64,000 bases of DNA, from positions 5,560,497 through 5,624,496 of the forward strand of contig NC_081387.1 of assembly GCF_030684315.1 (NCBI RefSeq), written 5' to 3'. Both the position numbers and the translations under genes were made by a program. The stretch is from Stegostoma tigrinum. Lineage: Eukaryota. The stretch's first letter is position 1, and every line of letters begins with the position of its first letter. A model generated the notes under the pieces. The model saw nothing but the letters and a program-made list of their open reading frames with translations. It made no database searches and had not been told where the DNA came from. This document shows positions 2,161-55,200 of the stretch, piece by piece.

Positions 2161-2421
2161 CTGATGTTTGGTTTGTCCCCTTCATTATTGTGATGAGATT
2201 TTCCTTAGCCATTGCGGAAAGTTTATTCCCTTGATTTGTGAGGTATTCCCAGTAATCATCATCAAAAGAATCCATCATCCACTGCTGCCGGGGGACTGTC
2301 CGCCTGGCATCACTGTCATAATGGGTCACAGGAACTCCATTGATCATTGCTACACCAAAATACTCAGGTAGGTCAGCAATACCAGAGGTTGCTATAAATG
2401 CCGTAGTAATGGTATTGCTGT
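2161..2421 (-). CDS. Non-classical MHC class I-like gene A, alpha1 exon (rest of gene lies beyond the window start)
   Basis: Acceptor ttttacag| and donor |gtaaga, 261 nt, phase 1/1. Translates DSNTITTAFIATSGIADLPEYFGVAMINGVPVTHYDS...RQQWM...YWE...TNQTSG, with class I alpha1 YDS, YW and the NQT glycosylation site. Confidence 0.93.
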
Positions 2422-2738
2422 CTGTAAAACAAGTAAAGGAACAATTCATTTACAAAAAAACTACCAACTGAGCAGGTATATTCTCAGCCATATAATGACG
2501 CTGCCCCAGAGACAGACACAGGGCGATGGAGAGGAATACAAACAGAAGCAGGCAGATACACGTATACCCGCCACAGAGAAGATACAATTGTAAATACCAA
2601 TTCTTCTCCCTTTAATGAATATCGTGACACACATTTCCTGCCGATGCTAACATTTCTACTTCCAGTGAAAACCAGTCTACACCCAGGGCTGGAGAAACGA
2701 CAGAGAGAGAGGATGGAAAGCTGAATTCTTGTACTTAC

Positions 2739-2790
2739 CGGGAGAGACCCAGGAAAAACACAGGGAGATGGAGAGAATGATGAGCAACAT
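2739..2790 (-). CDS. MHC class I-like gene A, leader peptide exon (coding part)
   Basis: MLLIILSISLCFSWVSP + G|gtaagt, 52 nt, phase 1. Near-identical to the gene B leader. Confidence 0.9.
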
Positions 2791-3212
2791 TCTGGTAATC
2801 CACTGTGCCTATTCCAATCAGGGACCGGGAATAAAATAGTCTAAAATGGGGAGGGGGAAGACTGAACAAGGTTATTGAGACTCCATTTTACTGCTGAATT
2901 TGAAGACAGATCATTTCCTGGGCGAGAAACTCCAGAACCAGCGGACAGCAGAAGCATGTTTATAAAAGGATATCCAATTAAAATGACATATAGTTATCCG
3001 TCATGAGTTACTGAGAGGTCAAACTCGGGCGAAATAAATAGCAAGACAGAAGCTTAGGGGGGGCTTTCTGCGAATTCTTCAATGTGGGGGATGGAGAAGC
3101 GAGCGTGTGTTGTCGCTGGTGACTGACGCATTGCTCAGAGTATCACACGCCGGTCAGTGCCTGAGCCGCAGGGAGAATCTGCCCAGGAACAGAAACAGTT
3201 GGAGAAACTCAC

Positions 3213-3420
3213 ACGGTCTGGCAACTTCTTTGGGGAAAGTGAAAACAGAGGCCAGTAACCTTTCTTCAGGACTAGGTAGTGCCTGTCCTCTCAGTTCGTT
3301 CATCAATGGAGTAACGTGTTTCCTGAAAACGCCAGTCAGAGGGAGAGCAGCGGCATGCGACTACTGACTGCTCCTCCAGAACTGTTTTGTTTCGCTTTTC
3401 GCCTGACTGGAGTTTTGCAG
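3213..3420 (-). promoter_or_regulatory. Putative non-coding first exon and promoter of gene A with ISRE/IRF motifs
   Basis: Donor |gtgagt at 3212, IRF-type motifs GAAAGTGAAA (3235-3244) and GTTTCGCTTTTC (3389-3400), locally CpG-rich. Matching acceptor ccattttag| at 2841. Confidence 0.5.
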
Positions 3421-3723
3421 GGACATGGGATGGTGAGCTAAGTGGGGTGGGGGATGTCGGCGACAAGAGCAAGGGACTAGCTCTTAGCCCCCACGATTTC
3501 GGGCATCCGTGCCTCAGAATGGCACCATTGGATGTCAGTCCCCTAGCCTACCCCATATCTGACAAACCAGTAACCACAGTATCCCGGGGCTGATTCTTAT
3601 TGGAAATCTGCCTGTTGGTTTTAGTGGCTTGGGGATCACCGTCACCTAATATAGACGGTGGAACATTTATTGCAATTTTCCGATAGTTTATTAATTTCAT
3701 TGTGTTTGTAAAGAAGCAACAGT

Positions 3724-3950
3724 TTAGATTAGATTCCCTACAGTGTGGGAACAGGCCCTTTGGCCCAACAAGTCCACACCGCCCCTTGGAGCATCCCACC
3801 CAGACCCATCCCCGTATAACCCACACACCCCTGAACACTATGAGCGATTTAGCATAGCCCGATCCACCTAGCCTGCACATCTTTGAACTGTGGGAGGAAA
3901 CTGGAGCACCCGGAGAAAACCCACACAGACACGGGGAGAATGTGCATCTC
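3724..3950 (-). mobile_element. HE1-like V-SINE (5' truncated by a Penelope insertion)
   Basis: V-domain tgtgtgggtttcctcc...gctccagtttcctcccacag and a CR1-type tail with aatct repeats. Same family as 33530-33842. Confidence 0.75.
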
Positions 3951-4337
3951 CCCTCCCCCCACTGCATCCCAAAACCAGCCCAGCTCGTCCCAACCTGTTC
4001 TTCCTCTCACTTATCCCCTCCTCCCACCTCAAGCCACACCTCCATTTCCTACCTACTAACTTCACCCCACCCCCTTGACCTATCCATCCTCCCCAGACTG
4101 ACCTATCCCCTCCCTACCTCCCGACCCATACTCTCTTCTCGTCTAGCCATCTTCAGTCTGCCTCCACCCCCTCCCTGTTTATTTCAGAACCCTCACCCCA
4201 TCCCCCTCTCTGATGAAGGGTCTAGGCCCGAAACGTCAGCTTTTGTGTTCCTGAGATGCTGCTGGGCCTGCTGTGTTTATCCAACTCCACACTTTGTTAT
4301 CTTGGATTCTCCAGCATCTGCAGTTCCCATTATCTCT
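3950..4337 (+). mobile_element. Penelope-like element 3'/pLTR fragment with intact minimal hammerhead core (4210-4237)
   Basis: CTGATGA-A-GGGTCTAGGCCC-GAAACGTC. Same sequence as the ends of the GIY-YIG-bearing copies at 26173-27936 and 45085-46176. Confidence 0.8.
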
Positions 4338-5239
4338 ATTCAATATTCCAGTTGCAACCTTGCCAAACTTACAAACTAACCGTTGGGAAAACTCAACATG
4401 GAAACCAGTATGAACTTTTGGTGACTCCAGTTGTGTGAGGAGCCAAATGACAGCAGCCCACCACCTGTCTTTAAATCTTCCTGCTCAATGGCAAGCTGCT
4501 TTCCTTTTGGAATGAGGGACAGAGAGGCTGTATTATGAAAGTGGTTGACACTGTCATTACTATTGGTGTAAATGGGGATGTGTACCGAGTGAGTGAGAAG
4601 GCAGCAGAGAAGGCATGCAGGATTAGTGGTGACAGGCGTTTGGGAATGGTGAGCGCAGGTGAAACAAGATGTTACAGACATTAGTGAGAGCGGTCGAGCA
4701 TCAGTCTTGGTGTTAGCTGGGTACTGTCGGAGAACTAGTGCGAGTGTGAAGTATCAGAGAGAAGATGATAGACCATAGCCTGATGGAGGGGAGAAGCTCT
4801 TTGACCTGCTTCCTACATTCCTCCAGCTGGCTGAGATTGCTTTAAGTCAGGGTGCAACCCTGCAGACACCCCCACAGGACTGATCTCTCTGGACTGTGTC
4901 AAAGTTTTGAAGATAACACCTTTCAGCCTGCAGGTCATTTTCCAGTAAATGGTCAATCCCTTGCAAAGGTAAGTTTAAGCTCACACACAGCATTACTGGC
5001 CTATAATACTTGTTTTTGAAGTGAGCTTCATGGTGCCTCAATGCTTTCTGCTGTCAGTCTGTAAAAATAGTACACAGGAATTTGCAGTTAATACTAAAAA
5101 AAGTCTCGAGGCTATCAAGATTGGAGAAAGACATGCAAGTAAGAAATTAAAGAGTCAAAATAGAAATGATACTTCATTGGGATTATCTATAAACAGTAGT
5201 GCAGGGGAAAGTGGTTAAAAAAAGATTGGGAACAAATTT

Positions 5240-5900
5240 GGACAATGTTAGGGTTTCTGGATTACAGAGAACCATTGGGTGATGATGTATTTGTCTTAGC
5301 TGTTTCAGGTGATGCTATTCTTTATCTTTCACCAACAATTCCTGATTTGGTAGCTGCAAAACCTCTCCCCAGTTCTCTTTTCTCTCTCGTTTTCCTGAAA
5401 TTCTACCACATCTTTTCCAACTGTGTTTTAGTTAGAGTAACTGTGTTTGGTTACAATTCAGCTTTTTTCACCTGTTCCAAAATCTGGACTGAAATACTGA
5501 GTTCACATTTTTAGAATCCCCTCTCTTTGTCTGGTTGTGTATTTCAGTCTTACTGTTTCACTACATCTTTTAGCTGCTCTACACTTAAGGACACAAATTC
5601 TTACCAAATTAAGTCCTCTTGTTCTACAAACATCTCTGCATCAAAATTTAGCCATCTTAACTTTCTCATATGTTATCACTTCCTTAAAGCTTGTTGCTGC
5701 AGTATCTTGCTTGTTTTTTTTAAAAAATCATCTATATTATTATTCCTTCCATTTCCAAATTCTTTAAAGTTCAAGTTCAGTTCATTTGCAACGGATTTAA
5801 TTTCAGTTTGAAGCTTTCAGTTGTCATGGATGCTTTAAAATGCGTTTCACTAACAGTTGTAGATAAATTTGTTTATCTTCTCTTTAGGAGTGAGAAATTC
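5240..5900 (-). pseudogene. Decayed coding segment, probably the helical region after the GTPase domain of a GVIN1/URGCP-like protein
   Basis: One frame reads as protein for about 190 codons with scattered stops: LQTEIKSVANELNLNFKEF...QLKDVVKQ*...ILEQVKKAEL*...TQLEKMW*NF. The plus-strand ORFs here are its antisense shadows. Confidence 0.45.
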
Positions 5901-7004
5901 AATCTGTAATAACACAGAAGAAAGTCCCTTTATATTTAAAAGAAGAATTGATTAATGTTTGCACTACTCAAGTAACTTCCAGTGCTATAAGGTTACTATT
6001 TCATTCCCAAAAAAAACCCCATGTATTTACAGGTGAAAGCAAAAACTGAAACTGACTGGAATTGAATCAGATCAGTCTTCACTCAGATTGGGTACTTCAG
6101 CCATTTGACTGACATGAAGGATTTGTAATTGTAGGGTTGCTTCATCAACTGCAAAAGCGTCTATTGTCAGTGGCTGGGGGGATTATTAATTTCATAGGAG
6201 TGTTCAGCAGATCAGATTACAGGATGAAGACAGGGGATCTTTCACAGGTGTGGGACTTTTCAGCTGTTTGAAGATGTTTCATAAGGAAAGCTGTTTTCAA
6301 GTATGTCCCCTGTTGTCCCTCCCTGATGGAAACAGTCCTGCATGATGGAAACAGTCTCACATTAAAATGTCTCCTTCATGTTTCAAGATGGCTCTCCAGA
6401 CTGTGATGGATACCCTCTCTTTAGAGAATGCTCTGTGTTTGTTGAGTGCCCTGTTCTTTAAAGCGTACCGTCTTTGTCTTGTTTTCCTGCCTTTTTACTA
6501 TCAGCGTGACTACCTGCAATGCCAAAGCTCATCCCCTAACATGTACAGGCATAGCCGTGGCAACAGCTTGTCGTGGCAGACTGCAGAAGTGTCTGTTTAA
6601 ATGCACCGCTGGGCAGGAGATGGCGGAGAGGCTGAGGGCTGGTAAAGAGGTGGGCTTCCTGTCCCTGCTCATGTCTGAGGAGTACATCTTCTCAGCCGTC
6701 ACTATTTTGCTACATTCACCCTGTTGCCATCACCTCACTGCCCAGCCCACTTCAGCTGCCAAATTGCCCTTTCCAGAGTCAGGAGTCGATGCGTAGGAGC
6801 TGGCTGGCTGCTTCGGCCTCTGTTCCTCACCCTATTCACTGCTCCCCCTCAGGTGCCCCCTATTCAAACTCCCTCTTCCTTACCCAGATCCTCATTCAGA
6901 CGCTAAGGTGCCCAATGAAATGGCTGCTGGTGAATAGCAGCTTGCCAAGAAGCTGTATTCCTGGGTGTGTGTTTATTCGTCATGCCACTTATTCCAACTT
7001 TCCC

Positions 7005-7570
7005 AATAGAGTCATACATCATGGAAACAGACCCTTCAGTCCAACTGACACATGCAGACCATAATCCCAAAACAAAATCAGCCCCTTCAGCCTGATCCTG
7101 GCCTATGTCCATCCACACCTTTCCTATTCATGTGCTTATCTGAATGTCTTTTAAACATTGTAACTGTACCTACATCCACCACTTTCCCAAGAAGTTCATT
7201 CTACACACGATCTACCCCGTGTAAAAAAAAAAGTTGCCCCTCGTGTCTTTTTTAAATTTTTCTCTTCTTATCTTAAAAATATGCCCCTAGTCTTGAAATC
7301 CACAATCCTAGGGAAAAGACAACTGCTATTCACCTTATCTATCTATCTCATGGTTTTATAAACCTTCAAAAGATCACCCCTCAACCTCCCATACTCGAAT
7401 GAAAAAAGTCCCAGCCTATCTAGCCTCTCCTTTTCACTCAAACCCTCCTTTCTGATAAATGTCTTCTGAACCCACTCCAGCTTCATCATATCCCTCCTAT
7501 TACAGGGTGACCAGAACTGGACAAAGTACTCCAGAAGAGGTCTCAGCAATATACTGTAAAATTTCACATA
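7005..7570 (-). mobile_element. CR1/HER1-like LINE 3' fragment
   Basis: RPLLEYFVQFWSP...LEWVQKTF...RLDRLGLFSFEYGRLRGDL, the CR1 RT C-terminus, plus 3' tail. Confidence 0.85.
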
Positions 7571-7589
7571 ATATCTCAACTTCTATACT

Positions 7590-7975
7590 GAAAGGACTGA
7601 GCAATATCAGGATGGTCAGACAATGGCTGCCAGACTCAATGTTCCATATCAAGCATGTGGTAGTCATACTATAGGATTGATTTCTCATTTAGCACTCGAG
7701 GCATTCATTAAGAACAAGGCTGCTCTCAGCTTCAGGGAAACCAGATCCTTTTTATTTCCACTGGAGTGTATCATCGCCCATAAAGTTGTCTCATTCTGCG
7801 TATCATACTCCACGTAACCCTAGTGTATTTAATTTCTCCTTTGTCATTTCTTGCTTGAATTTAGAATAAAAAATGCTAGCATCAATTTCATTGAAGTAGA
7901 AATACTCGGGAGCGAGATAAGAGCAGGAATAAATGAAGCAATAATTTGAAAAGTGGTTGGAACAGATAAAATACC
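7590..7975 (-). pseudogene. Decayed coding segment, possibly the region before the GTPase domain of a GVIN1/URGCP-like protein
   Basis: EYFYFNEID...KEKLNTLGLRGV*...FPEAESSLVLNECLE...LTILILLS loosely follows the recalled family order (GLEH..., LP.LAA.L...PLEL, VLSVLG). Confidence 0.3.
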
Positions 7976-9399
7976 TACAGAAAGAGTTTAACTTCAATGT
8001 TTATTAACTTGTGTGCAGGCCTTTATGTCAGTGTGGAAGCAATGATTGAAGAAACGTTCGAAGGCCCAGATTCTGTGTCTGAAACAAAACGTTCAAAATA
8101 AAATGAGTGAGTTAACAGCTCATAGAGCAGTGAGTGGGGAGTTAACAACAGGATAAATTGAGGCCCAGGATTGGGGGCCCAACACTTCAGTGTAAAATGA
8201 GCAGGGAGGCAAAGTCAGCAACAGGATAAATTGATCCATGATATAATCCATTCCTTTGCCTAATTGCCTTCTCTCCCTCTGGGCTCTTTCTCCACCTATC
8301 CACTCACTCCTTTCCACTCCTCCCAATCCCCTCTATTAAGCATATACACCACCTTTGTCCACCCACTATCAATTCAGAAGAAGAATCACTGGACCTGAAG
8401 CATTAACTCTGCTTTCTCCCTGCGGATGGTGCCAGACCGACTGTGTTATGCACAATTTTCATTTTCTATTCCAGAATCCTGAATACTTTCCTTTTGAGGT
8501 AGAATGAAATGGGGATCTTTACCATTCTCACCCTTAGGTTATTTCTATCTTTGGTTCTATCATTTGACTCAAACTTCACATTCTGTTTCCAAATGCTGAC
8601 TGGTCTGTTGTAAATTGGTACGATTTTCTATGTTTTGTCTCTGATTTATGTTGAAGGTAGATAAGATTGCTGATGCTTAATCAGTAAATATCAATATTAA
8701 AAGGCATTCGGTAATGAACTTTGGAACCGGTTAGTAACTATAACCAGTTTCTAATGCTGTCATTACAAAGGCTAAATGTTACATGAACATGTTGTACTAA
8801 GTTATTCTTATAGTTAACAGTTATCAGTTTACTGTTTCAGATATATTTTTCAAATCATGAAATAAATTACAAATGATCTTCTATCCAATTGGATGGGACC
8901 TCTTTCCCAGGTTCCATTCTTAGCTATTTAATGAAAGCCAGAGAATCACCTAGGATTGTTTCTCTTCATGTTCGTGCGCTGCAACACCCAGTGTCCTCCA
9001 AAGATTTGTTCTTGGTCCTCTCTTATTTCTCAACAACTTGCTGCCCCTCCATGTCATAGAGGCATAGAGTCATACAGCACAGAAACAGACCCTTCCGTCC
9101 AAACAGTCCATACCAACCACAATCCCAAATTAAACTAGTCTCACCAGCCTGTGCTTGGCACATATTCTTCCCAACATTTATTATTCATGTTCTTATCCAA
9201 ATATCTTTTGTATGTTGCAACTGTACTCTCATCCACCACTTCCTCTAGAAGTTCATTCCACACACGTACCACTCTCTGTTGCCCCTCATGTCTTTTTTTA
9301 AAAATCTTTCCTGTCTCACCTTAAAAATATGCCCCCTATTGAAATCCCCCACCATAGGGAAAAGATACCTGGCATGCACCTTTATACCCTTCATAATTA

Positions 9400-10150
9400 G
9401 CGAGTTTTGAGAAGATTTGTAGCTCAGGTAGAGGCTCTGGATGTGAGTTTGCTCGCTGAGCTGGAAGGTTAGTTTTCAGACATTTCATCACCATTCTAGG
9501 TAACATCATCAGTGAGCCTCCGACGAAGCGCTGGTGTTATGTCCCGCTTTCTATTTATCTGATTAGGTTTCTTTGAGTTGGTGATGTCATTTCCTGCGTT
9601 GGTGATGTCATTTCTTGTTATTTTTCTCAGGGGATGGTAGATTGGCTCCAAGTCAATGTGTTTGTTGATGGAGTTCCGGTTGGAATGCCATATTTCTAGA
9701 AATTCTCGTGCGTGTCTCTGTTTGGCTTGTCCTAGGATGGATGTGTTGTCCCAATCAAAGTGGTGTCCTTCCTCATCTGTATGTAAGGATACGAGTGATA
9801 GTGGGTCATGTCGTTTTGTGGCTAGTTGATGTTCATTGATTGGGACAACACATCCATCCTAGGACAAGCCAAACAGAGACACGCACGAGAATTCCTAGAA
9901 GCATGGCATTCCAACTGGAACTCCATCAACAGACACATTGATTTGGAGCCAATCTACCATGCCCTGAGAAAAAGAACAGGAAATGACATCACCAACACAG
10001 GAAATGACATCACCAACCCAAAGAAACCTAATCAGATAAATAGAAAGCGGGACATAACACCAGCGCTTCATCGGAGGCTCACTGTTGATGTTACCTAGAA
10101 TGGTGACGAAACATCTGGGAACAAACCGGCAAGCTCAGTGAACCAGCTTA
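9400..10150. mobile_element. Penelope/Poseidon-like element, two arms in inverted orientation
   Basis: GIY-YIG C-terminus (DWDNTSILGQAKQRHAREFLEAWHS) on + at 9826-10098, mirrored on - at about 9400-9820. Hammerhead-like ctg(a/t)tgatgttacctagaatggtga(c/t)gaaa in each arm. Confidence 0.85.
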
Positions 10151-10313
10151 CATCTGGAACACAATAAAGACCCACTCTCTTGTGGACCGAGAGGAGGAGA
10201 GTGCTGTCTTGGAGGTGAAAGGAGGACGTCGGGTTGGCTGTGCACCCTTGCGACCAGTGGATCTTAATGCTGGCTTCGGCCTAACGCTGGTTTAGGGGAG
10301 CAGCCAACCTGCA

Positions 10314-11776
10314 ATGATGGCTGCGGCAAGTGCTCGTGCCCCAGGTCAGGGGGTCCGGAACACCATCCGTGTTTCCGTAAAGAAGGTGGATGAAGGTGCA
10401 CCTGTGGACCACACCTTCTTCGTGAAGAGGGTCCTGTTGGACTGTTGTGGGTTCGCTGCTGCGGACATTTACTGCCTGCAGGATTTCCACGGAGGAGGTT
10501 TTTACGACGTGACCTTCAGGAGTGCCAAGCTTTGCGAGCGCTTCCTGGAGGTTTTCAAGGAGAAAGGAGGTGACGGCCCCCTCTCTATATTGACCACTGT
10601 CCCGCTGTTTGTGATGCCAGCGCAGAGGAGCCGTATGGTGACTGTACACACGTACAACCTGCATGTGCCAGCAGTTGATGTCCTGACCTTCCTCGGAAGG
10701 TACGTGAAGGTGGAAGGGGACCTAAGTGACATCGTGGACCCCTTTGGCATCTGGACGAGTAAGAGGCAGGTCAAGGTGACGCTGAGGATGGGCGCAGACA
10801 GGAATGTCGTACACCCACCATCCAGCTTCGCGATCGGCGAGAGCAAGGGCTACCTGACCTATGCAGGGCAACCTAAAGTCTGCCATGCCTGTGGTAGGTC
10901 AGGTCACGTGGCGGCCGACTGCAAAGCCACCATCTGCAGGAACTGCAGGGAGGAGGGACACCTTGCAAAGGATTGCCCACGAGAGAGAAGCTGCAACCTT
11001 TGCGGGGAAGCGGGCCACTTCTATAGGGCATGCCCGCAGCGGGGGACCACCTACGCCCAGGTCGCCGGCAGGGGCAATGCGGGGCCAGCCCCCCGGAGGA
11101 GAGGAAGGCACCAGGGCCCAGCAAGGACCCCACTAATGTGCAGGAGGGCCAGGCCGTGCAGGAGGGCCCAGCCCCCGCAGGATTGGCCCGAGGCCAGCAA
11201 AGCACCCCTGCAGGCTCCGCTCCCCCCGACAACCCGGAGTCGATGGAGGCGACAGGCGACCCAGGGGAGTGGAGAACGGTCCGGAAAGCGAGGAGGAAGG
11301 TGCGTCGACGGGGCCAGGAACCGCAACCATCAGGCGGGAAGAGGCAGCTACAGGGGGGCTATAAGAGCTCCTCTGACGAGGAGGATTCGGAGAGGGCCCG
11401 CCCGAAGCAGAAGTTAAAGATCTCGAGGGAGAAGGAAAGCAGCACCACGCTTCCAGGTGACGGGAGGCGTCCTGAGGCTCCCTCCGACACCCAGTCAAGT
11501 GCCGCTGGAGCACTGGAGGGCCTCCCGGGACTTCCAGGCGGGAAGGAGGTAACAGCGCATCCCCAGCCTGACCCGGAGCCGGACCCTCCTGCCTCTGCAC
11601 CCCTGACGGGGGGATGCCACCCGGAAGGCAGCACGGATGGTTTCCTGAGCCTGGAGAGCGTCCAGCAGTTAGCCCGGGCAATGGGCATGAAGGGACAGAT
11701 GGAGGGGCTGGACCTTGGACTTGGGGAGGGTACTGCGGTCACTGCCCACAATGGGGGTACGAGTTGCGAGCATTAA
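10314..11776 (+). pseudogene. Tx1-like ORF1 (RRM-like region plus 3 CCHC zinc knuckles, ZCCHC3-like), one frameshift near 11090
   Basis: CHACGRSGHVAADC, CRNCREEGHLAKDC, CNLCGEAGHFYRAC. The frame switches from ORF 10314..11417 to ORF 11030..11776. Confidence 0.88.
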
Positions 11777-14700
11777 TGTGCGCAGCGTCAAGTCAACCGC
11801 GAGATGTGTGTCCACGTTGGCCTACCTGACCACCATCAAGGCGGACCTCCTGTTTCTGCAGGAGTGCGGGATACCGCACCTCGGCAGGTACGGGAAATGG
11901 TCCGGCGCCTGGACCTGTGGGCCTTCGATCTGGTCGGGGTTAACGACTGTCGCTCCTCGGGCCTGGCTATTCTGCTGCGGGGGCGCGACTTCACCATCTC
12001 TCAAGTTCAGGAGGTGGTGGGGGGGCGCCTCCTAGTGGCTGACATCACCTACAGGAACGCTCCCCTGAGGCTGATCATCGTGTACACCCCAGTGGTACGG
12101 AGTGAGCGGTTGGCCGTCCTGCAGCGGCTTCCACCCCTGCTGGCTACATCCAGGCCAGTCATCCTAGGCGGAGACTTCAACTGCATCATTGATGCAGATG
12201 GAAGGTTTGGCTTGGGGACAGCGGGTGGGGGGAGTCAACTGGACGCCACGTCCAGATTCCTGATGGGCACGGTGAAGGACGCCAAGCTGCTCGACGTCTT
12301 CAGCACCCCTGCAGACGGAGCGCAGCGGAGGTACACCTGGTCGTGGCCAGATGGGTCTATCCGCTCAAGGATAGACTTCCTGTTTGTGTCACGGGCGTTC
12401 TCGGTCAGGTCCACCGGCGTCGAGCCGGTGTTCTTCTCTGACCACTGCCTCCTGCTGGCCGACTGTCACTTACAGGACGACCAGCTGGCCGGCAAGGGGA
12501 CGTGGAAGCTCAACACGACTCTGTTGACCCCAGAGAACGTCGAGGAGCTTAAGAGGGAGTACGTTGATTGGAGAACCATGAAACCCCTCTTTGAGTCTCC
12601 AGGCGACTGGTGGGAGACGGTGAAGGAGAACATCAAGAGGTTCTTTGTCCTCAAGGGTTTTCGGAAGGCGAGAGAGAGGCGGGGAAAGCTGTCGCGACTC
12701 CAGAAAAGGGTGCAGAACCTGCTCCTTCTGCAGTTGATGGGGGTCGATGTCATGGAGGACCTCCGCGAGGTGAGGGGCCAGCAAGCCTCGCTCTTCGCCG
12801 CGGAGGCCTCCAGGATAATCTTCCAGTCCAGGGTCCGCTCCGTGGAGCAGGACGAGACATGCTTGCGTTTCTTCTTTCAGAAGGTGCACAAAGAGAGCTC
12901 TGTGCTTAGCCGGCTGAAGGAGGACGACGGCTCGATGACGTCGTCTCGGCCCGACATTTTGAGGATCAGCAGATCCTTCTATGCCGGACTGTATGACACG
13001 AAGCCCACGGACAGCACAGCCTCCGAGTCGTTCCTGTCGTCTATCACGGAGGTCTTAGATGACGGCACGAGGGAGTGGCTGGACCGGCCGATGTCCCTGG
13101 ACGAGCTGACCAGAGCCCTCAAGTCCTTGGAGAGGAATAGGACTCCCGGAAGCGATGGCTTACTGGTCGAGCTGTATTCCGCTCTGTGGGGCCTGGTCGG
13201 CCAGGACCTGCTGGAGGTGTACGATAGTGCGCTTTGGGCAGGGGAAATGTGCAAGTCCATGAGGAAGGGCATCATCACCCTCATTTACAAGAGGAAGGGG
13301 GAGAGGGAAGAAATTAAGAATTGGCGTCCCATTTCACTATTGAACGTGGACTACAAAATCCTGGCCAAGGTCAGAGCCAAGACAACAAAATGTGAGGCTG
13401 GATGAACACAGCAGGCCAAGCAGCATCTCAGGAGCACAAAAGCTGACGTTTCAGGCCTAGACCCTTCATCAGAGAGGGGGATGGGGTGAGGGTTCTGGAA
13501 TAAATAGGGAGAGAGGGGGAGGCGGACCGAAGATGGAGAGAAAAGAAGATAGGTGGAGAGAGTATAGGTGGGGAGGTAGGGAGGGGATAGGTCAGTCCAG
13601 GGAAGACGGACAGGTCAAGGAGGTGGGATGAGGTTAGTAGGTTGATGGGGGTGCGGCTTGGGGTGGGAGGAAGGGATGGGTGAGAGAAAGAACAGGTTAG
13701 GGAGGAAGAGACAGGTTGGACTGATTTTGGGATGCAGTGGGTGGAGGGGAAGAGCTGGGCTGGTTGTGTGGTGCAGTGGGGGGAGGGGACGAACTGGGCT
13801 GGTTTAGGGATGCAGTTGGGGAAGGGGAGATTTTGAAACTGGTGAAGTCCACATTGATACCATTAGGCTGCAGGGTTCCCAGGCGGAATATGAGTTGCTG
13901 TTCCTGTAACCTTCGGGTGGCATCATTGTGGCACTGCAGGAGGCCCATGATGGACATGTCATCTAAAGAATGGGAGGGGGAGTGGAAATGGTTTGCGACT
14001 GGGAGGTTCAGTAGTTTGTTGCGAACTGAGCAGAGGTGTTCTGCAAAGCGGTCTCCAAGCCTCTGCTTGGTTTCCCCAATGTAGCGGAAGCCACACTGGG
14101 TACAGTGGATGCAGTATAGGTCATAGCCAACCGGGTCAGGTCTGTCCTGGAGTCAATGATTCACCCTGAACAAACCTGTGCTGTGCCGGGCAGGAATATC
14201 GCTGAGAGCCTCGCGCTCATCAGGGATACGATCGCCTACGTACAGGACAGGCGGGTGGACACCTGCCTCGTCAGCCTGGACCAGGAGAAGGCCTTCGACA
14301 GGGTCTCTCATGCTTACATGAGGGACGTCCTCTCCAAATTGGGGTTCGGGGAGGGCATCCGCAATTGGATCCGGCTGCTCTACGCCAACATCGTTAGCAC
14401 AGTCTCGATCAACGGGTGGAAATCAGACAGTTTTCCTGTTAGATCTGGAGTCAGGCAGGGCTGCCCGCTCTCTCCTGCCTTGTTCGTGTGCTGTGTGGAG
14501 CCCTTTGCCGCATCCATCAGGAAGGACGTGAGCCTGAAGGGCGTGACTATCCCAGGCAGCGGAGGCCTTCAGGTCAAGACCTCCCTGTACATGGACGATG
14601 TCGCCGTCTTCTGCACTGATCGTCGGTCGGTGAGTAGGCTGTTGGACATCTGCGGCCAGTTTGAACTGGCCTCGGGTGCCAAAGTCAATAGGGGTAAGAG

Positions 14701-15895
14701 CGAGGTCATGTTCTTCGGGAACTGGGACGACCGCTCCTTCATCCCCTTCACCGTCAGGACAGACTACCTGAAGGTGCTGGGTGCTTGGTTCGCTGGAGCT
14801 GGGGGGTGCACGAAGACTTGGGAGGAGCATATCACCAAACTGAAGCAGAAGCTGGGCAGGTGGACGCTCTGGTCCCTCTCCATTGCGGGTAAGAACCTTG
14901 TTGTCAGGTGCGAGGGGCTTTCGGTACTGTTGTATGTGGCACAGGCCTGGCCTATTCCCTGGGCCTGCGCCGCTGCAGTCACCCGGGCCATCTTCCACTT
15001 CATTTGGGGATCGAGGATGGACCGGGTCCGCAGGGATACCATGTACAAAGACCTGGAAAATGGGGGAAAGGACATACCGAACGCCACCCTCGCCCTGACG
15101 GCTACGTTTGTGTGCGGCTGCATCAAGCTGTGCGTAGATCCTCAGTACGCAAACACCAAGTGTCACTACTTACTGAGGTTCTACCTGTCCCCGGTGTTGC
15201 CGCGGAACACTCCGAGTAGTTGGACCGTTCCGTACCACCTGTCCTTTGCGGAGAAATTTTTGAAAGGAAACACCTTTGACCATAAGGACGTCAGGCAGTG
15301 GTCAGCACATAGTATCCTCGAGACCCTTCGGGAAAATGAGAGGGTGGATCCCGTCGTGTGGTTCCCCACGCAGACTGCCAAAGTCATTTGGCAGAATGCC
15401 TCATTGCCAGAACTTTCAAACAAGCACGAGGACATTGCTTGGCTGGCGGTGAGAGGGGCTCTGCTAGTGAGATCCTTTATGCATGCCCGGAATCTCTGCA
15501 CCACCGCACGCCGCCCTCGAGGTGGCTGCGGGGGGGATGAGACTGTCGATCACCTCCTTCTGGAGTGTGCCTATGCGCAGGAGGTCTGAAGGGGGATGCA
15601 GTGGTATTTGTCGAGGTTCGTCCCGAGCAGCTCCGTGACGCGGGACTCCGTGCTCTCCGGGCTGTTTCCCGGGACGCACACCAAGACCAACATCAACTGC
15701 GCCTGGAGGACCATCAATGCGGTGAAAGACGCTCTTTGGTCTGCCCGCAACTTGCTGGTCTGCCAGCTGAAAGAACTGACCCCGACCGAGTGTTGCAGAC
15801 TGGCGCACTCCAAGGTCCAGGACTATGTGCTGAGGGACGCGCTAAAGCTTGGGGCAGCCGCCACCAAGGCACGATTGGGAAAGACCACCGTATGA
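11751..15895 (+). pseudogene. Tx1-like ORF2 (endonuclease-reverse transcriptase), disrupted
   Basis: MGVRVASINVRS, LQEC, GGDFN, RIDF, SDH (APE); WRPISLLNVDYKILAK, DQEKAFD, GVRQGCPLSP, YMDD (RT); ETVDHLLLEC. Frameshift near 11940, insertion at 13381-14117, stop at 15587. Confidence 0.93.
13381..14117 (-). mobile_element. Penelope-like element inserted into the Tx1 RT domain
   Basis: 13-bp TSD aggtca(g/t)agccaa at 13368-13380 and 14118-14130. GIY-YIG C-terminal fragment (RRLQEQQLIFRLGTLQPNGINVDF) and hammerhead-type end. Confidence 0.92.
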
Positions 15896-19949: not shown

Positions 19950-21470
19950 CTTTCTTCCAAAAGGCTGATGTTTTGATGCTGCTATCAGAAGGCACATTCC
20001 AGAGTCTGCACTGGTCACTGAGATCTCTGAAGGCCTTATCAAAAAGCAGATTCCATTTGATGTCCTTATTTATGAAACTGGCAACAGTAGTATAATTATC
20101 TGAAATTAACTTCTCATTAATGTTGCTTCCGTATCCATTTAGCCCTTAGTTCTGGTGATATTCAGCACTGTGCTGTGAGTGCTCCCTGTTTGTACAATCA
20201 CACAGGACACCACAGAAAGGGCACTGCACCCCACAGCCACATAACATTGTGTACAATTCACTGGATGGATCTGTAGGGAAAGAAGTGATTTTCTCAGCAA
20301 TGTCCTACTCCTAATCTTTTAACGCTTTCAGTCAGATCATTTGTTCTGATAATATTTTCAGCTTCTTTTTTAAAGTCCTCGAGTTAATTTTTTCAGACTG
20401 AAAAGCAACAGGTCCCAGTATCTCCTGTGGAATCTGTATCTTGTCTTCCAGTTTTGTTTTAAATGCCAGAATGATCCCGGTCATTGACTTCTCATCAATT
20501 GGAGGTGTTATATCCTTCAGTGTTGCCCTCTCATGGGTGATAATCCCAAGGAGAATGTTCAGTGTGAGAGAGCATAGCAGAGGGACATATTCATGGTTTG
20601 TGGCTTCACAGTGTTGGTGAACTTATTCTTTCAGGCAACCTTTCTAGAATGACACAGTGTGTTGCATATATCAGTAATATTTATCAAAACTGTCTCTCCT
20701 TCAAATGCAGCATTGGATTCAATCTCCTACCTTCCAAATGCTTGTGGTTAATCATTTTTCACCACTGATTGAGACATTGAAAACCACATTTTCTCCAAAC
20801 CTGTATTGGAAATGACTTCTATTTTAATACCATTGTAAATGTTTTCAGACCTTCCTTTCCTTTGTGAACCAGCTTGTTATTCTCATTCATTATTCTCTCC
20901 TTGCAATTGCTCAGCTCCTCCTAATTCTTGAGGATCTGATTTTCTTCCCTTTCTGGGTTAGTTCCAGGAAGCTTTTCAATATGACCACAGTGACTCAGTA
21001 AAATCAATGTTATTCCCCGTTCTTTGCAGTTGATTAGCAGAATATTACCGGGATTACTTGTTACTGTAATTACATCATCTACAGAAATTGTATTGTCTGT
21101 CAGAACCAGACTCAGTTCTCGCTCACTAGGAGTTTGGTTACCTCCAAATGGGTCAGATTTCAGGTTGTGAATCTCTCTGAGCAGGCTCAGTTTCGAGCCA
21201 TGTACGGGATTAGCTCCAGTCCCACATTATTATCCGTGGCTTCCTATTGATGGAGGGTGGGCTCTGTTTCCAGAAATGGTTGCGTGGGAACTAATAAAAA
21301 CAGTAAATAGGTCAACTGCGCAACATTTGAAATAAGTGTAAATGTGGTACTAATATAACAATGATTTAAATGGTTTTTACTAAAATTTGGAATCTCACTT
21401 GTTTGATGTTCTTCCTCAGAATTCCTCTGGCATTGTTGCTGTAGGTTTCGAGTTTTATCTATGGGCAAGA
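19950..21470 (-). pseudogene. GVIN1/VLIG/URGCP-family very large GTPase pseudogene, C-terminal part
   Basis: One frame from about 20700 to 19950 reads SFDKYY*YMQHTVSF*KGCLKE*VHQHC...KITSFPTDPSSELYTMLCGCGVQCPFCGVLCDCTNREHSQHSAEYHQN*GLNGY...EKLI...TTVAS...WNVPSDSSIKTSAFWK. This matches the recalled family signature GC..QCPFC...C...H..H...HRP.GL.GY...W.I..D.S....YWK. The part above about 20700 is less certain. Confidence 0.8.
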
Positions 21471-25918: not shown

Positions 25919-26035
25919 CTCTCTGAGTCCTTTTCCACATTACTAATATAATTATTCCGACTATAACAGCCAGGGGAATGATCACAAATCCTGTTATTTC
26001 AAGATGCAAGTGTCTGGTGCCATTTCCTGGGTTTT
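25919..26035 (-). CDS. MHC class I-like gene B, connecting peptide and transmembrane exon
   Basis: Acceptor tgtgtttcag|, donor G|gtaagt, 117 nt, phase 1/1. Translates ENPGNGTRHLHLEITGFVIIPLAVIVGIIILVMWKRTQRG (hydrophobic helix then basic stop-transfer). Absent from the ORF track. Confidence 0.88.
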
Positions 26036-39593: not shown

Positions 39594-39872
39594 CCCACTG
39601 ATAGAGCTTGGCCTCTGCCAGGCTGCTGTGTTCAATTCGACAGGAATATTGATCCTCATCCCCAGCACTGATTTCAATCTCTTTCTGGATCTGATGGGTC
39701 CCATCATGGTTCGGTCGAATCCCCGAGGATTGTATCTCAGACACAACCTCTCCATTCCTTAGCCAGGTCACCTTGATGTCTACAGGATAAAATCCAGTGA
39801 CCAGGCAGGAGAGAGTGAGCGGCTTGTCCTGATGATTGGGCTCATTTCTGGAGATGAACACTTCAGGCTGAA
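39594..39872 (-). CDS. MHC class I-like gene B, alpha3 (Ig C1-set) exon
   Basis: Acceptor cccatcacag|, donor G|gtaagg, 279 nt. Translates VQPEV...LSCLVTGFYPVDIKVTWLRNG...PNHDGTHQ...YSCRIEHSSL. Confidence 0.96.
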
Positions 39873-39976: not shown

Positions 39977-40252
39977 CTTTCCTTTTGAGATATTCCTTTC
40001 CAAAGTGTAAGCGTAGTTTTAAACGCTCAACAAGTTCTATTTCCAACTGCCATTTCCAGTATTTGTTCCAGGCTTTGTCTGAATTCCATTTTTCCGCAGT
40101 CTTCACTGCAAAGTGATTTGATGCGACCCATCTCATTCTGTCTGGATCTAAACTAATAAGATCATTTCCATCAAATCCAAATCGCATTGATGTCTTAATG
40201 GAGCCATCGTCATTTATTTCAACACTCCTTATCCATTGGAAAATGTGAATTC
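39977..40252 (-). CDS. MHC class I-like gene B, alpha2 exon
   Basis: Acceptor tattgtcag|, donor G|gtatat, 276 nt. Translates GIHIFQW...FGFDGNDLISLD...WVA...AVKTAEKWN...LHFGKEYLKRK. Confidence 0.94.
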
Positions 40253-46648: not shown

Positions 46649-46909
46649 CGGATGTCTGGTTTGTACTCTTCATTATCGTCTTCAGGTTCTCCTTTGCAAT
46701 GGCACAATGTTTATTCCCTCGATTTGTGAGATATTCCCAGTATTCCTCATCAAAGGCATCTGTCATCCACTGCTGTCGGGAGACTATGCGAGGGGCACTG
46801 CTGTCATAATAGGCCACCGGAACTCCGTCGATCATTCCCACTCCAACATACTCAGGTAAATCAGTGGTGCCAGAGGTGGCTAAGTACATTACCATAAATT
46901 TATTCCTGT
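46649..46909 (-). CDS. MHC class I-like gene B, alpha1 exon
   Basis: Acceptor ctttctacag|, donor G|gtaaga, 261 nt. Translates DRNKFMVMYLATSG...YYDS...RQQWM...EEYWE...TNQTSG. Confidence 0.94.
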
Positions 46910-46979
46910 CTGTAGAAAGTAAAGATTAACAAATTCAAGGCACACTTGAATAAACACTCACAAACACTACCAGCTGATC

Positions 46980-48529: not shown

Positions 48530-48990
48530 AAACTTGCAGGGAGAGAGAAAGGGAAAGACTGTTGGACAGAAAGAGGCAAAGAAACAATGGGATCGAGAGA
48601 GAAACATATGCACGGGCAGAGGCAGGATAGCAGAAAAAAAGAGACAGAGAACCAGAGACAGAGATAATGAGAGAAAGAGAGAGACAGAGGGAGACATTGA
48701 AGAAGAGACAAAGAAGAAACAGAAACACAGGGACACAAAGAAAGGAAGACAGAGATCCTTAGAGAGGACAGAGATAGAGGGATAGAGGAGAGAGCAGACG
48801 GAGAGATGGAGACCAAGAAGAAAAAATCCGGAAGGAGACAGGCAGGGATCCAGACAAAGACAGACACACACACATACAGCCACACAAGCACAAACAGACA
48901 CATGCACACAGACTGACACGAAGACACAGATTGAGGCACACTGAGGCACAGAAGGACAGAGAAAGAACACAGACATACACAGCGAGACAG
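48530..48990. repeat. GA/CA-rich low-complexity expansion in gene B intron 1
   Basis: Purine-rich gaga/gaca/caca mosaic that produces the spurious hydrophobic ORFs in the track. Confidence 0.8.
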
Positions 48991-49157
48991 CCATGAAAGG
49001 AAATTCTCCCCTCGGCTCCTCATCGGTACAATCGTGACATTAATTCCTGACAGACACCGACGAGCATTTCCACTCCCACAAAGTCCCAGGAAAGTTCCTG
49101 TCCTCGCCGTTTGCTGGAGGAGTGAGTGTGAAATGGAAAGCTGAATTCTATACTTAC

Positions 49158-49209
49158 CGGAAGAGACCCAGGAAAAACACAGGGAGATAGAGAAAAGAAT
49201 CAGCAACAT
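49158..49209 (-). CDS. MHC class I-like gene B, leader peptide exon (coding part)
   Basis: MLLILFSISLCFSWVSS + G|gtaagt, 52 nt, phase 1. Confidence 0.92.
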
Positions 49210-52200
49210 TCTGGGAAGTCACTGTCCTTATTCTGATCAGAGACTTAGAATAAAACACTCTGAAGCGTAAATCAAACGGCGTTAACACACTAGGAAATGC
49301 CGTAAGCCAAGTCAATCTATTAAATTCTAATTGTTCACCTCGAACTTTGATCATTTCCGGAACTCAAATTCCAGAAGCAGATTGGTTCGCCTCAGCAAAA
49401 CGACCAATTAAAAAGATGAACAGTCACGAACTGTCTCAAGTTTCCAGTAAAGTGACTCATACAGCGTGACAGTGAGAGTCAAGAGTCCTCCACCAGCTCC
49501 AGGGCAAAAAATAGGACAACATGCTAAAATCTTTGACCCAACAGTAAACATACTGACACTAGCCCCAATCCCCCTAGAATATGTTAAACTTGATGCAGCC
49601 CAGGCTGGAGTTATACCACAGTAGATTAAATGTGTTACAGTTAGACATATTCTGTAATATTGAGACCACCACACAGAGAATTCACAGTGAAATCCAAGCA
49701 GCTGGAGAATGAGGGGAGGGAGTCACATTTAGCTCCATAAAATTAAAGGTTTACCAGTGAAGAAATAGTTCATTGATCAGAATCAAGGTGAACAGCCCAA
49801 ACCAAAGAAAGTAAGCTCTGGGTAAACTGTGAAATGCTCAGGTCATTTGTTGCCCTGTAGGAATGGACTGGATAATTTAGCAGCAGAAATAGGGGAACCA
49901 GAGGAGCCAAATGTAGATATGCCTCTCCGACAACAAGGAGACAGCCACTTGGACAACAAGTAATCATTATTTACATTTTGCAAATAAGATACTTGGGGAT
50001 GTAAGAATTGGGTCACCAGTAAATAATTCTGTGGGAGCAACATGAATGTATAATGGGTAGCTATAGGCTAAAAAGCTTGAGGGGAGATTCTATATAAGGT
50101 AATGATTCAGAAGGCATTAATGTTCATGTTACGTTGAGCTCCACCCAATCTGATGAGGTCACACACAGTCTTTGGCTGGAGGCAGTTGAATTCTATATCA
50201 ACACCTTCTGGGAGCAGATGTATTCTGTACAACTCCTAACAGCCTTGGCAACCATGTCTAACTCGTAATGCAAGTTATACGTCTTGCTTTCAGGCAATAA
50301 ATCAGTTAACCAAGACCAGTCCCTCTTCTTTTAAATGTCTTCAACGGTCTATCCATAATACTATACCAGGATAGGCCCTGGACACTGATAGAAAAAGGAG
50401 GATTTGTGACAGCAAACTACCTCAAAGAACCATTACTTTGCACCACACACTGGCATAAGTGATGGGTATCACATTGGTACCAGCAAAGGCCAACATAGTA
50501 ACACTTGATTCTAGTAATGAGAGGTTTTAAATACAAATATATCAGACTGTAAGTTGTTTTAGATTGGGTGGCTCAATTAGAAAAGATGAAACAGGAGAAA
50601 AATTGCATTAAAATATTCAAGAGCTCATCATGGGTATAATTAAGGAGTCAAAAAGCATTTAGGACATTAGTGGGATTTGCCTACAGACCTGATACCAATG
50701 ATGAAGTAGTGGGAAGTTTATAATGGAAGAAGTTTTGTGTAGAGGAAGAGCGGTTATAATGAGAAAACTATGAAATTTGTTGAAAACTATGAAAAAAACC
50801 ATGAATTTGTTAGATATAACCAGGATAGCTTTTTTGAACAATGAGAGATCTTTTAACATGGAGAAGCCTGTGAATTGGGGACAAAATGGTGAATTTGACA
50901 CCATGTCAATAAATATATCATCAGTTTATATTGAAACCCATTATTAAAACTCTTTAGGGAAGAAAATTGTTCATCCTAACATGGATGTTTATTGTTCAAT
51001 CCTTTATCACTTTCATTAACTCCACACACAATCCTACATCGTCTTTGTCCCAAACTCCCAGCTGAAGTGCCTCCAAGGTTTGTCACTACTCCCTGGAAGA
51101 GAGCACTACAAATCAAGGCCCACTATTCTTGGCGTTGGCACAAATGTGAAAATTTGATTAAATCATTGAACTGTCCAAATTAACTGAACAGTTGAATTCA
51201 AATTACGCAACACTGTAAAATTAAAACTTTCAAAAGACCCTCAAAATTAACCTCAATAGTTTCTAACCAAACTTTTGAAATAACCAGTCCTAGACTCTGC
51301 AAATAATCAATTCTAAACACACATTTGTATTTTAAACAAAAGACTTTGCCGGTTATTAACAACACATCAATGTTGACAGAGCAAAATTAAAGAACAAAGT
51401 AATCTAGTTATTGTCTCTGCTTTAAACCCTTTGTTTTCAGCCTCATTCATACAAAAGACAACTAGACAGACAAACAAACAGTTAAGGGATAAATAAAACA
51501 AAACTGGCCAGATTACTTAAGTGGTTTTCATAATGCATTGATTCACACACACAGATGATTCCTTCTTGGTCGATCTTCTGAAGATGCCAGTCAGAGTCAC
51601 CTTTATAGTTCCCTCAGATAAGAACAGTAATACATATAACGCAGTTTTTTATTCTCTGAGCTTCCAAGAACTACTCATGGAGGTTAGGCAGAAAGCTTTC
51701 AGAACTTCATTCTGTAACATCCACAGCCAGACTCCTTCTTACAGAAAACACATTCCAAAATCTAACTCAAACTCTAACCACTTCCTGACAGATTGATCAT
51801 TTCTACCACAGGGTCCCAATCAACATTCAACCTCTGCCATCTGCTTTAGCACAAGATCTTTTGCAGACTTCCTGGAAACAATTCCCAGATACTGACCTCA
51901 TTAATAGCCAACTTTTACTGTCTCTTTAAACGTATTGCTCTTCTCCAGTGATTAAGCAACTAAACAACTTTTTGATCAGGGAACCTACCTGCAATTAACT
52001 CTCAGCCTGGCCTTGTGAATAAGCAGAAGTTTGTTTGATCTATTTTCCTTTTAACGTAAACCATTACCCACAGCTCCAAACTAAAATTGATAAAAGGATA
52101 AAATATAACTAACAAAAATGTCAGCAAATGTTCTGACAAGAATTGCTAACTTTTAAATTTAAATTCTAACCCTTTGAAAAAGAATCCCATATACATGTAG

Positions 52201-55200
52201 ATACAAAGAGACAAGAGACAAATATTGTGGATGAGAAAGTAACAAAAATGTCTTTGATGGATAGTTCAGGCACCAGTCCATATTACAGAAATCAATGAGT
52301 TGTTTTCCTTCAGTCCGATTCTGATTCTTTTCAACTCTAAGAGCACGAGGTTGTGGACACACAAAATCTCAATCTTCCATTCACTGATTGAGGATTTATC
52401 CTTTCAGTGTCTCTGAATGAGTTTTTTCCCCCCTTTTTCTTCCAAGAAGGGCATTTGCAAAGAGAGGGTGAGAGATAGAGGAGCTAGCTCCTTGGGATTT
52501 TCTTTTACTTTCCACTCAAAAGATACAGAGAAAGAGAGAAAGAAAAAGTGTGAGAGAGAGATTTAGGTGCTCTCTCTCTCTCCTACAGGGTGAATGTTTG
52601 TGCTATAATACCACCTGCCCAGGAACTAATCAAAAAGTTGTTACTACACTGAATACTCTTGAACATAACTGTCCTGTTTGAATCAAACACAAAAGTAAAA
52701 TTGGCCGAAATGGACCCCCATGGAACGGAAACATCCAGCATCCTCCCCTGCTGCTGTAAATAAGGTGGATACAACTCACAAGGAGTTCCAGTCGCTCAAT
52801 TTTTTAACACTGCAGCATCATCTTCCACAGTACCTCGATTTATAGCAGTATCTTTTCCTATTTCTTAGCCCACAGTACGTGGGAAAAGGGTCTTTACAGG
52901 CATTACACTATGATCCACTTGGTTTCATGACCAAGTAAGCGTGTATCTACAGGATCAGAGATAATGGGAACTGCAGATGCTAGAGAATCCAAGATAATGA
53001 AGTGTGGGGCTGGATGAACACAGCAGGCCAAGCAGCATCTTAGGAGCACAAAAGCTGACCTTTTGGGCCTAGACCCTTCATCATTTTCTGAAGTCAAGAA
53101 CATGAAGAATGATTTGTGTGACTTTATTCATGGTCACAGAATTCATTTGCAGTTGGACCTAAATCCTCAACTCCATAGAGATATGGGTTTAAATCCCCCT
53201 CCAGGACCTCAGTAGAAAAACTCCTTGCTGAAATCCCAGTGGAGTACCGAGGGTAAGAGACAGGAGCAGATGGAGGGATTTGAAAACTGACTCAAAAGTC
53301 TCAGTAATGCTGAGCTTTCTAGCGAACATCGGGATATTCCTCAAGTTTAATTCCCGACACACTGAGCTATGACAATATAACTTTCCGTGTGAATGAAAGC
53401 AGAATGGTCTATCAGCAGTGCCAATCGAAGACAATCAAATGGCCATTCCAGCTGACACCAGGGACTTTTCCACCTTTCATGATTTCAGGAACCCAGACAC
53501 AAAGACAGCAGTGACACCTACAGCTCTAACTAGTTGCCAGCTTAAATCACATCAAAACTACCTACATTTTTAAATTCATTCATGGGATTTGGCATTTCTG
53601 GCTGCAATCAATTTGATACATGTAGACCCAAAGTGCTGCTATGAAGGGAATTCTAGAACTTGACATGAACAGTGAAGTAAGGATGATGTGTGGTTTGGAA
53701 GGTAACTTGTGGGTATATGTGTGTTTTAGGTAACTGCTGCCCTGGTGCTTCTAGGTGGCGAGGTTTTGAATTTGAAACATGTTGCCTTAGCAAGTTAATG
53801 CACTGCATCTTTTAGACAGTGACACTGCTGCTACTCAGCATTAGTAATTAATAGTACATATAGTGCTAATCCAGTGGTCTGCTTTAATCTGGATGTTGTC
53901 AAGCTTGTGGAGTGTTGCTCAGATTTTATTCATCCAGTCAAATGAAGAGTATTCTGTCACATGCTTCACTTGTACATTGTAGATGGCGGACATGATTTGG
54001 AGAGTTACTCACTGCAGGATTTCTAGCCTCTTACCTGCTCTTGTAGCTGCAGTAGTTACATAGCAAGTCCAACTGTGTTTCCAGTCAATTCCTGGTTTGG
54101 TGATGGTAATACCATTGAAAAAAATCAAGGTGCAGTGGTTACATTCTGTCCTATATGGTTATTGGCTTGTCTGGTGTGGTGCGAATAATACTTATTAGTT
54201 GTCAGTTCAAGCCTGGATATTGTCCAGGTCTTGCTGTACGTGGACGCGGTTTGTTTCAGTGCCTGAGTAGCGGTTAATGGCTTGGCCCAGCATGGCGGTC
54301 TCTCAGCCCAGCATTGCAGTCTTCTGGCAGTTCATGGTTGTCTCTCAGCCTGGCATGGCCTCAGCATGGACTGATGGTCATGAGGTGATTACTCTAAGTA
54401 TGGCCCAATCATGGCTAAGCATGTAAGGCTGTAATGTCTGAAATTTCAGCTTTCTTAGCTTTAAGTAATAAAGAAATTAAGTAATAAAGAAATAAAGTCT
54501 AGTGTGTAACTTTTAACCTTATTTCATACATTTTACGCGATTCCATAATTACTGCAATGCTTAAATTTTTTCTCTCTACCTTGTTCTTAAGATTGTGTGC
54601 TTAGTTACAATTATCTAAGATTTGGCCTTCGTAACAAAGTTATGCACGTTCCACTGTACTCCTGCACTGCTAGCCTGGAGTACACATGACAATAAAATCA
54701 AAATCAAATCAAATATGATGATGGAAGATCATTGACAGAGAAGCTAAGATGAGTACAGTATGCTGAGGAACTCTTGCAGTGATGCCCCGGAACTGAAATG
54801 ATTGATGTTTAACACCACAGCCATCTTCTTTTGTGCTCAATATAACTCTAGTCACTGAAGAGTCACCCCAATGTCTGGTGGCTATACATCCTGACTACGG
54901 GCAGATACCATCAATTGACATAGACCCATGGGCAGCAAGATAGCAGCCTGTGCTTGCAAATCCCAGAACACTGCGACTAACATTAGATCTGATTCTGCTG
55001 TCAGTCAACTTTTATCAAAGAACTTGAATTGTATTATGAATTATACCAAAAAGCAGGAAAGGATTGTCAGTCAGACTTGCAATGTGATGAATTTGCACAT
55101 GCCAAAAGCTACACTGGTCTGTTTTACAGAGGTGGAGGGAATATATATTGCACCTTTTTTTGACGAAAAATGGGTCAAGATTCTGCCAGTCGCCACCACA

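Follow-up and report, generated by a model that had tools for sequence, protein, structure and literature searches.

A decayed copy of a GVIN/URGCP giant GTPase gene, located about 20 kb into a stretch of shark DNA, is the terminal exon of an MHC class I gene, to which it contributes the tail end and a 3' UTR of ~2 kb or more. The exon is a doubly deleted GVIN giant exon, likely captured once in an ancestral shark and copied thereafter with the class I sequences. The probability of this reading, taken as a whole, is set at about 0.85. The locus had been viewed in a preliminary description as a class I gene flanked by a co-duplicated GTPase relic; very probably it is a different object, a chimeric class I gene lineage which features GVIN as last exon.

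The window (64,000 nucleotides of Stegostoma tigrinum DNA) corresponds to C44 5560497-5624496, and 985,504 bases of C44 around it were assembled and examined. Two class I genes, called B and A, were identified on the minus strand by Pfam and protein matches. Gene B is whole, and is made of a leader exon (49158..49209; 100% identical to residues 1-17 of the database protein P0124, and provided with a GT donor), an alpha1 exon (46649..46909; Pfam MHC_I, P0124 match), an alpha2 exon (39977..40252; Pfam MHC_I, 100% to P0124), an alpha3 exon (39594..39872; Pfam C1-set, 100% to P0124), a transmembrane exon ending in phase 1 (25919..26035), a short cytoplasmic exon of phase 1-1 (21399..21458; P0124 residues 329-348), and the terminal exon (19955..21290), recognized by acceptor alignment, tblastn, HMM, nhmmer and contigs of a relative as an internally deleted GVIN giant exon. 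Only the first two exons of gene A reside in the window, the leader (2739..2790, similar to the gene B leader) and alpha1 (2161..2421, Pfam MHC_I). The other exons of gene A precede the window, at C44 5544-5558 kb, and the last of them is likewise derived from GVIN.

About 17 related class I copies are found at C44 5.52-6.38 Mb. A UGA-like gene at 6.25 Mb and a UDA-like gene at 6.41 Mb, compared by eye with queries from the supplement of PMC10751288, and a BET-domain (brd2-like) gene at C44:5340736 mark the surroundings of the array. C2H2 zinc-finger genes occur at its low end, and a minus-strand C2H2 frame of 389 codons is found at window 62072-63238. The alpha3 exons of B, A and a further class I gene, Z, show 93-97% identity among themselves and with other copies, and their alpha1 exons only 61-79%; judged from sequence, alpha3 exons are strongly homogenised or constrained across the array (C44 5.52-6.38 Mb). 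An inverted duplication of ~70 kb (C44 ~5860-5933 versus 6024-6099 kb), mostly 95-99% identical and with class I genes inside, is recent. A near-complete non-LTR retrotransposon, encoding a ZCCHC3-like ORF1, an endonuclease and a reverse transcriptase, spans window 10296-15892 on the plus strand, and is split by a ~700-base repeat at 13.4-14.1 kb.

According to the preliminary description, decayed GTPase segments occur on the class I strand at three places, 5240-7975, 19950-21470 and 52590-53500. The window was queried by tblastn with 18 cartilaginous-fish GVIN proteins, fetched starting from a neighbouring GVIN GTPase frame (PF25683, E 3e-104), the reversed window serving as control. Only 19954-21175 aligns to GVIN. 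Scores of 280-286 bits were obtained at 20697-19954 (P0006 residues 1357-1608, 252 aa, 58-60% identity), the best score in the reversed window being 28.5 bits; two profile HMMs concur, the profile score of the 20-kb segment is 316 bits, and none of 25 random segments of the same length equals the segment. The best tblastn scores at 5240-7975 and 52590-53500 on the minus strand are 23.1 and 21.9 bits, values reached by 17 and 16 of 25 random same-length segments, respectively, and with the --max option the profile HMMs detect in both intervals nothing above the reversed control. The DNA matches at 7079-7598 and 52946-53083 are multi-copy in the window and map to insertions which interrupt the coding alignments of GVIN pseudogenes, and are therefore repeats. 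On the basis of tblastn, the two HMMs, nhmmer and the random-segment controls, relics at 5240-7975 and 52590-53500 are ruled out. An upstream cassette common to genes A and B was similarly rejected, self-blast revealing leader and alpha1 similarity plus repeats only. Pfam assigned no family to four relic fragments and a read-through translation.

Of the three segments, that on the minus strand at 19950-21470 thus stands, and the other two score as random DNA. Relics had been placed upstream of the class I genes; the real one is downstream, as the end of gene B. It had been taken as a C-terminal piece, which it contains, along with N-terminal and mid pieces, and the mid-protein pieces assigned to a second copy at 8-5 kb find no GVIN match above random there. 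Inside the window only the 20-kb segment aligns to the family, an outcome named in the preliminary description as refuting its proposal; further copies reside outside it, at C44 5513-5516 and 5544-5546 kb. The notion that class I and GVIN sequences expanded together survives in a different anatomy: the array is interleaved with decayed GVIN sequences and co-duplication occurred, but the relic is part of the gene.

The relic is made of three collinear pieces, all on the minus strand, separated by two internal deletions. The linker piece of the GVIN N-terminus, from which the class I tail originates, spans 21012..21290 (weak alignment from 21300; significant in DNA by nhmmer, E 6e-8, and matched in blastp of tails against GVIN). 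The mid piece, between deletions 1 and 2, spans 20769..21017 and matches P0008 residues ~456-549 (nhmmer E 1e-12). The C-terminal piece, at 19955..20718, corresponds to P0006 residues 1357-1608, features in-frame stops, and is detected by tblastn, HMM and nhmmer. Missing coding sequences measure ~0.95 kb (deletion 1) and ~2.6 kb (deletion 2). Residues ~150-455 and ~550-1420 of P0008 are deleted, and the URGCP and VLIG-type GTPase domains, which sit at 230-530 and 561-963, are almost wholly gone. The open frame of ~1600 aa is absent, as four stops interrupt the best frame of the relic, and the frame is shifted at deletion 1.

P0124, which is identical to the gene B exons of the window, ends in two exons, 21458-21399 and 21290-21244. 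The latter is the start of the relic, and provides 15 codons and a stop; the remaining relic is 3' UTR. The acceptor AG of the relic and the sequence following it align with two fuller GVIN copies, G6009 (6009 kb) and G5758 (5765 kb), at their acceptors. All three acceptors are in phase 1, which is also the end phase of class I transmembrane exons. Three sequence runs were compared with the locus: X1 and X2, guessed to be RNA, come from one study and one relative (~7% different), and X3 is DNA-like. In contig 10 of run X2, 21458-21399 and 21290-21244 are joined without the 108-base GT-AG intron that separates them, and the contig continues through the relic to 19520. Run X1 covers 21460-19300 with the short intron retained, and includes 202 further letters not fitting the locus. 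In run X3, no joint between the short cytoplasmic exon and the relic was detected. The P0124 exons, the aligned phase-1 acceptor and the X2 contig identify the relic as the terminal exon of gene B. Gene models and splice phases indicate that the transmembrane exon is probably spliced to the tail exons.

The two relics found outside the window carry the same two deletions, and end the next two tandem class I genes, Z and A; each begins with the tail of the corresponding gene. Past deletion 1, all three relics resume at G6009 6010802-6010807, and collinearity holds across both junctions. Since the same two deletions end B, A and Z in tandem, class I gene and relic have been duplicated together as a single gene. 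The repeat-masked dot plot suggested in the preliminary description reveals a collinear diagonal running through relic, spacer and class I exons of the Z and A units, at 69-82% identity. Class I and relic trees agree as far as alpha1 is concerned: the relics of the neighbouring genes (r1, r2) group to the exclusion of the window relic (r3), as ((r1,r2),r3), in all three pieces, and the alpha1 tree is ((Z,A),B), with 93% bootstrap. The topology of Z, A and B is without resolution in alpha2 (40%) and alpha3. In its C-terminal piece, the window relic shares 75-77% identity with full-length GVIN copies versus 65-69% with the sister relics, and therefore either a later gene conversion or uneven rates are needed; conversion from a GVIN donor is the likely explanation. 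The second junction of the window relic lacks ~34 bases kept in r1 and r2.

GVIN-derived tails mark class I gene models in eight shark genera besides Stegostoma tigrinum. Tails of Heterodontus, Scyliorhinus, Mustelus, Carcharodon, Chiloscyllium, Hemiscyllium and Rhincodon match GVIN N-termini at E values from 1e-49 to 1e-6, and the Cetorhinus tail matches GVIN by HMM. In a tree built on a 43-row alignment of alpha1-alpha2, B, A and Z fall in a clade of 14 rows (support 100/98). The GVIN-derived exon was found in 13 of these rows: in nine database rows by an HMM made from GVIN N-termini only, in B and P0132, whose tails are too short for this HMM, by their first residues, in Z and A by their relics. 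The remaining row is the sevengill shark P0140, whose 6 full-length isoforms all end in an ordinary tail. The exon was found in none of the 18 database proteins outside the clade. Carriers belong to four orders (horn, carpet, mackerel and ground sharks), and the capture is hence no younger than galeomorph sharks, which date back roughly 200 million years. MHC-linked GVIN genes and the class I lineage reside on the same chromosome-scale record in 8 of the 8 sharks that could be checked, which denotes a shared record and not a distance; outside the eight are Pristiophorus, and Carcharodon, Rhincodon and Heptranchias, which have no GVIN among the matches listed. Accession numbers of GVIN and class I proteins are interleaved, and hint at interleaved genes, accession order not being a map.

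Deletion 1 shifts the frame after ~90 GVIN-frame codons, and an out-of-frame stop terminates the tail 15-20 residues further on. The last residues of the tail and the stop are an alternative-frame reading of codons of the GVIN mid region. Tails reach this end, which contains a Leu-Leu, in Heterodontus, Scyliorhinus canicula, gene A of the whale shark, and genes A and Z of the epaulette shark. Elsewhere they stop earlier, as in all three local genes: the B tail ends at codon 16, the Z tail at ~codon 39, and the A tail via a 1-base deletion near codon 78. Differences between Z and A tails, sorted by codon position (10/12/17), provide no evidence of selection. A once-functional mini-GVIN made from the deleted exon was considered and rejected, as deletion 1 shifts the frame and third-position changes are not in excess in the relics, the latter being a weak test. 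From their sequences, the B, A and Z proteins are predicted to be without possible GTPase activity, and may function as class Ib molecules provided with a new acidic tail, ending in Gln-Ser/Arg-Leu-Leu where intact.

The history starts from what is observed today, GVIN genes inside a class Ib array, whose giant exon has a phase-1 acceptor at its start, matching the end phase of class I transmembrane exons. A class I gene would have lost or bypassed its own short tail exons, and begun splicing into a downstream GVIN exon. The ~0.95-kb deletion shifted the frame, creating the short out-of-frame tail end, and a second deletion removed the GTPase domain. Tandem duplication of the chimeric gene gave rise to B, A and Z, with both deletions in common, and each copy in Stegostoma tigrinum then further shortened its tail. 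Such a history has to be weighed against the possibility that the dead GVIN fragments are passive neighbours, lying outside the genes and co-duplicated with them. Tandem co-duplication is real, and in the relic branches the fraction of third-position changes in mid and C-terminal pieces is 0.23-0.33, with no third-position excess, which indicates a non-coding mode of evolution for most of the relic. This codon test is of low power, however, as the same measure is only 0.36 and 0.43 in fuller GVIN copies. Both upstream fragments on which passive co-duplication relied fail the random controls, and the relic starts encode class I tails in eight other genera and are spliced to a class I exon in the contig of the relative. 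Passive neighbours are hence a very improbable explanation.

Alternatively, different class I genes could have captured, or converted, nearby GVIN exons on several occasions. The window relic is mosaic-like in its C-terminal piece; the tail of a Heterodontus class I protein (P0134) is 89-94% identical to the N-terminus of GVIN P0008 of the same species up to the deletion point, which suggests gene conversion between the two families, or a separate event; and a class I-GVIN fusion model of the epaulette shark, P0328, is built on a different ectodomain. Against these points stands the frameshifting deletion-1 junction, common to Heterodontus, Scyliorhinus, Hemiscyllium, Rhincodon and the three local copies. 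Independent events would not repeat the same junction, which argues for a single origin of deletion 1, and multiple captures are considered unlikely, if somewhat less so than passive co-duplication.

A stronger competitor reverses the order of events. A full-length class I-GVIN fusion receptor would have come first, and still reside in some sharks, B, A and Z being its truncated descendants; we rate this as quite possible, at somewhat below even odds. Splice phases permit in-frame joining, and XP_060706692.1 (P0328), a RefSeq model of 1932 aa from the epaulette shark, features class I and an intact GVIN in one frame (MHC_I, C1-set, transmembrane stretch, URGCP, URGCP_GTPase). In P0328, part of alpha1, alpha2, alpha3 and the transmembrane region are joined to an intact GVIN of 1670 residues at the same acceptor as the tails. 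The near-full-length pseudogene G5758 (5758-5765 kb) begins with almost the same residues as the GVIN part of the fusion, with broken class I exons 16-40 kb upstream on its strand; a transmembrane exon of the free-GVIN type was not detected in it. G5758 could be a dead counterpart of the fusion. A transmembrane-like exon of phase 1-1 is found at C44 5992.7 kb on the plus strand, 17 kb upstream of the 6009-kb GVIN pseudogene, and matches GVIN P0008 of Heterodontus at its N-terminus; membrane anchoring is thus predicted for some free GVINs of this clade.

P0328 is, however, the only class I-GVIN fusion among 398 proteins screened, and is devoid of the leader and of half of alpha1. Its ectodomain is nearest to another class I sub-lineage (76% to g6340), so that P0328 is not the direct ancestor of B, A and Z. 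Gene models from the same arrays often chain neighbours (P0336, P0397, P0358), and annotation treats the remaining long proteins in the 90% cluster of P0328 as free-standing GVINs of 1578-1656 aa. A second fusion was found neither in a search for longer class I proteins (up to 2000 aa) and a search by GVIN N-termini (948-3019 aa), nor among the best 150 of 3037 representative matches; these are weak negatives, since P0328 itself is hidden inside a cluster. No open frame leading from class I to an intact GTPase was found in the 985 kb of C44 examined. Because of the missing leader, the different class I sub-lineage and the neighbour-chaining models in these arrays, the odds that P0328 is real are put at about even, and those that it is functional are lower; it may be an annotation read-through. 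The wider proposal that in some sharks a class Ib ectodomain is fused to an intact interferon-type giant GTPase in one membrane receptor, of which B, A and Z are a truncated remnant, and that GVIN is an ancient part of the MHC beside beta-2-microglobulin, is less likely than not. The same odds, below even, are given to the existence of a working full-length class I-GTPase receptor.

UEA genes have reportedly lost conserved peptide-anchoring residues. The nurse-shark label UCA is taken by us to denote the UEA lineage, partly also on the main text of the study of the shark MHC-Ib cluster. The gene B alpha3 matches the nurse-shark query labelled UCA in the PMC10751288 supplement at 84 of 93 positions, and differs at 9, as counted by eye. 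The UDA/UEA MHC-Ib cluster of sharks is described, in the parts of PMC10751288 available, as flanked by brd2 and b2m, and the array around the window fits this cluster. As in UEA, genes are organized in a multicopy array with UDA- and UGA-like genes and a BET gene nearby (PMC10751288), and the alpha1-alpha2-alpha3-transmembrane exon plan is present in gene B. In contrast, a GVIN-derived tail is found here and none is described there. In the parts available, the main text of PMC10751288 mentions neither GVIN nor GTPase, and the supplement names GVIN only in the reedfish tables; two of its three elasmobranch tables carry LOC ids only, in which GVIN rows could hide. On reedfish chromosome 12, the same supplement places a five-gene GVIN/URGCP cluster ending 117 kb from two b2m genes, and a second GVIN/URGCP cluster beside zinc-finger genes at 10.8-11.1 Mb. 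The proximity of reedfish GVIN to b2m in these tables raises the possibility of an older MHC link. A literature search, which extended to few subscription papers, retrieved no report of a link between shark GVIN and MHC class I, or of a class I-giant GTPase fusion.

Immune chimeras made by exon capture include TRIM5-cyclophilin A fusions and the integrated domains of plant NLRs. The class I genes resemble both, as a foreign C-terminal module is acquired by a sensor gene from its neighbourhood; unlike in those cases, the acceptor gene is an MHC class I gene, and the gain in B, A and Z is a truncated, partly out-of-frame tail with no folded domain. In respect to GVIN1/URGCP (Pfam PF25496, PF25683) the relic represents direct sequence descent from the giant coding exon, but has lost almost all of the URGCP and GTPase domains, has a broken frame, and serves a class I gene. 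Intracellular bacteria are reported to be coated by human GVIN1 (10.1101/2025.03.24.645074). Database proteins with Ig plus GVIN and CARD plus GVIN indicate that N-terminal domains of several kinds can precede the GVIN exon. In the turtle model P0055, butyrophilin-like Ig domains precede an intact GVIN. Two frames of at least 760 codons, featuring FN3 domains and a septin/AIG1-like GTPase, reside inside the class I array (L046:4500-6782, plus strand; C44 6042.6-6045 kb, minus strand), and the same GTPase piece also heads the catshark GVIN model P0021. An intact GVIN-family frame of 2292 codons, with a long N-terminal extension, is found at C1 188.73 Mb; a copy on C58 is broken, and a C-terminal fragment resides at C44 2.079 Mb.

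The unusual long tail of a widespread shark class Ib sub-lineage would thus have its source in a GTPase gene of innate immunity, acquired by exon capture inside the MHC, where a GVIN clade shares its record with the class I lineage in all the sharks that could be checked. The common deletions provide a marker of duplication order in a class Ib array with homogenised alpha3 exons. P0328 is a specific candidate for an MHC class I molecule that carries its own enzyme effector, of a kind for which the literature searched holds no report; if true, ligand recognition would be coupled to a cell-autonomous effector in one chain.
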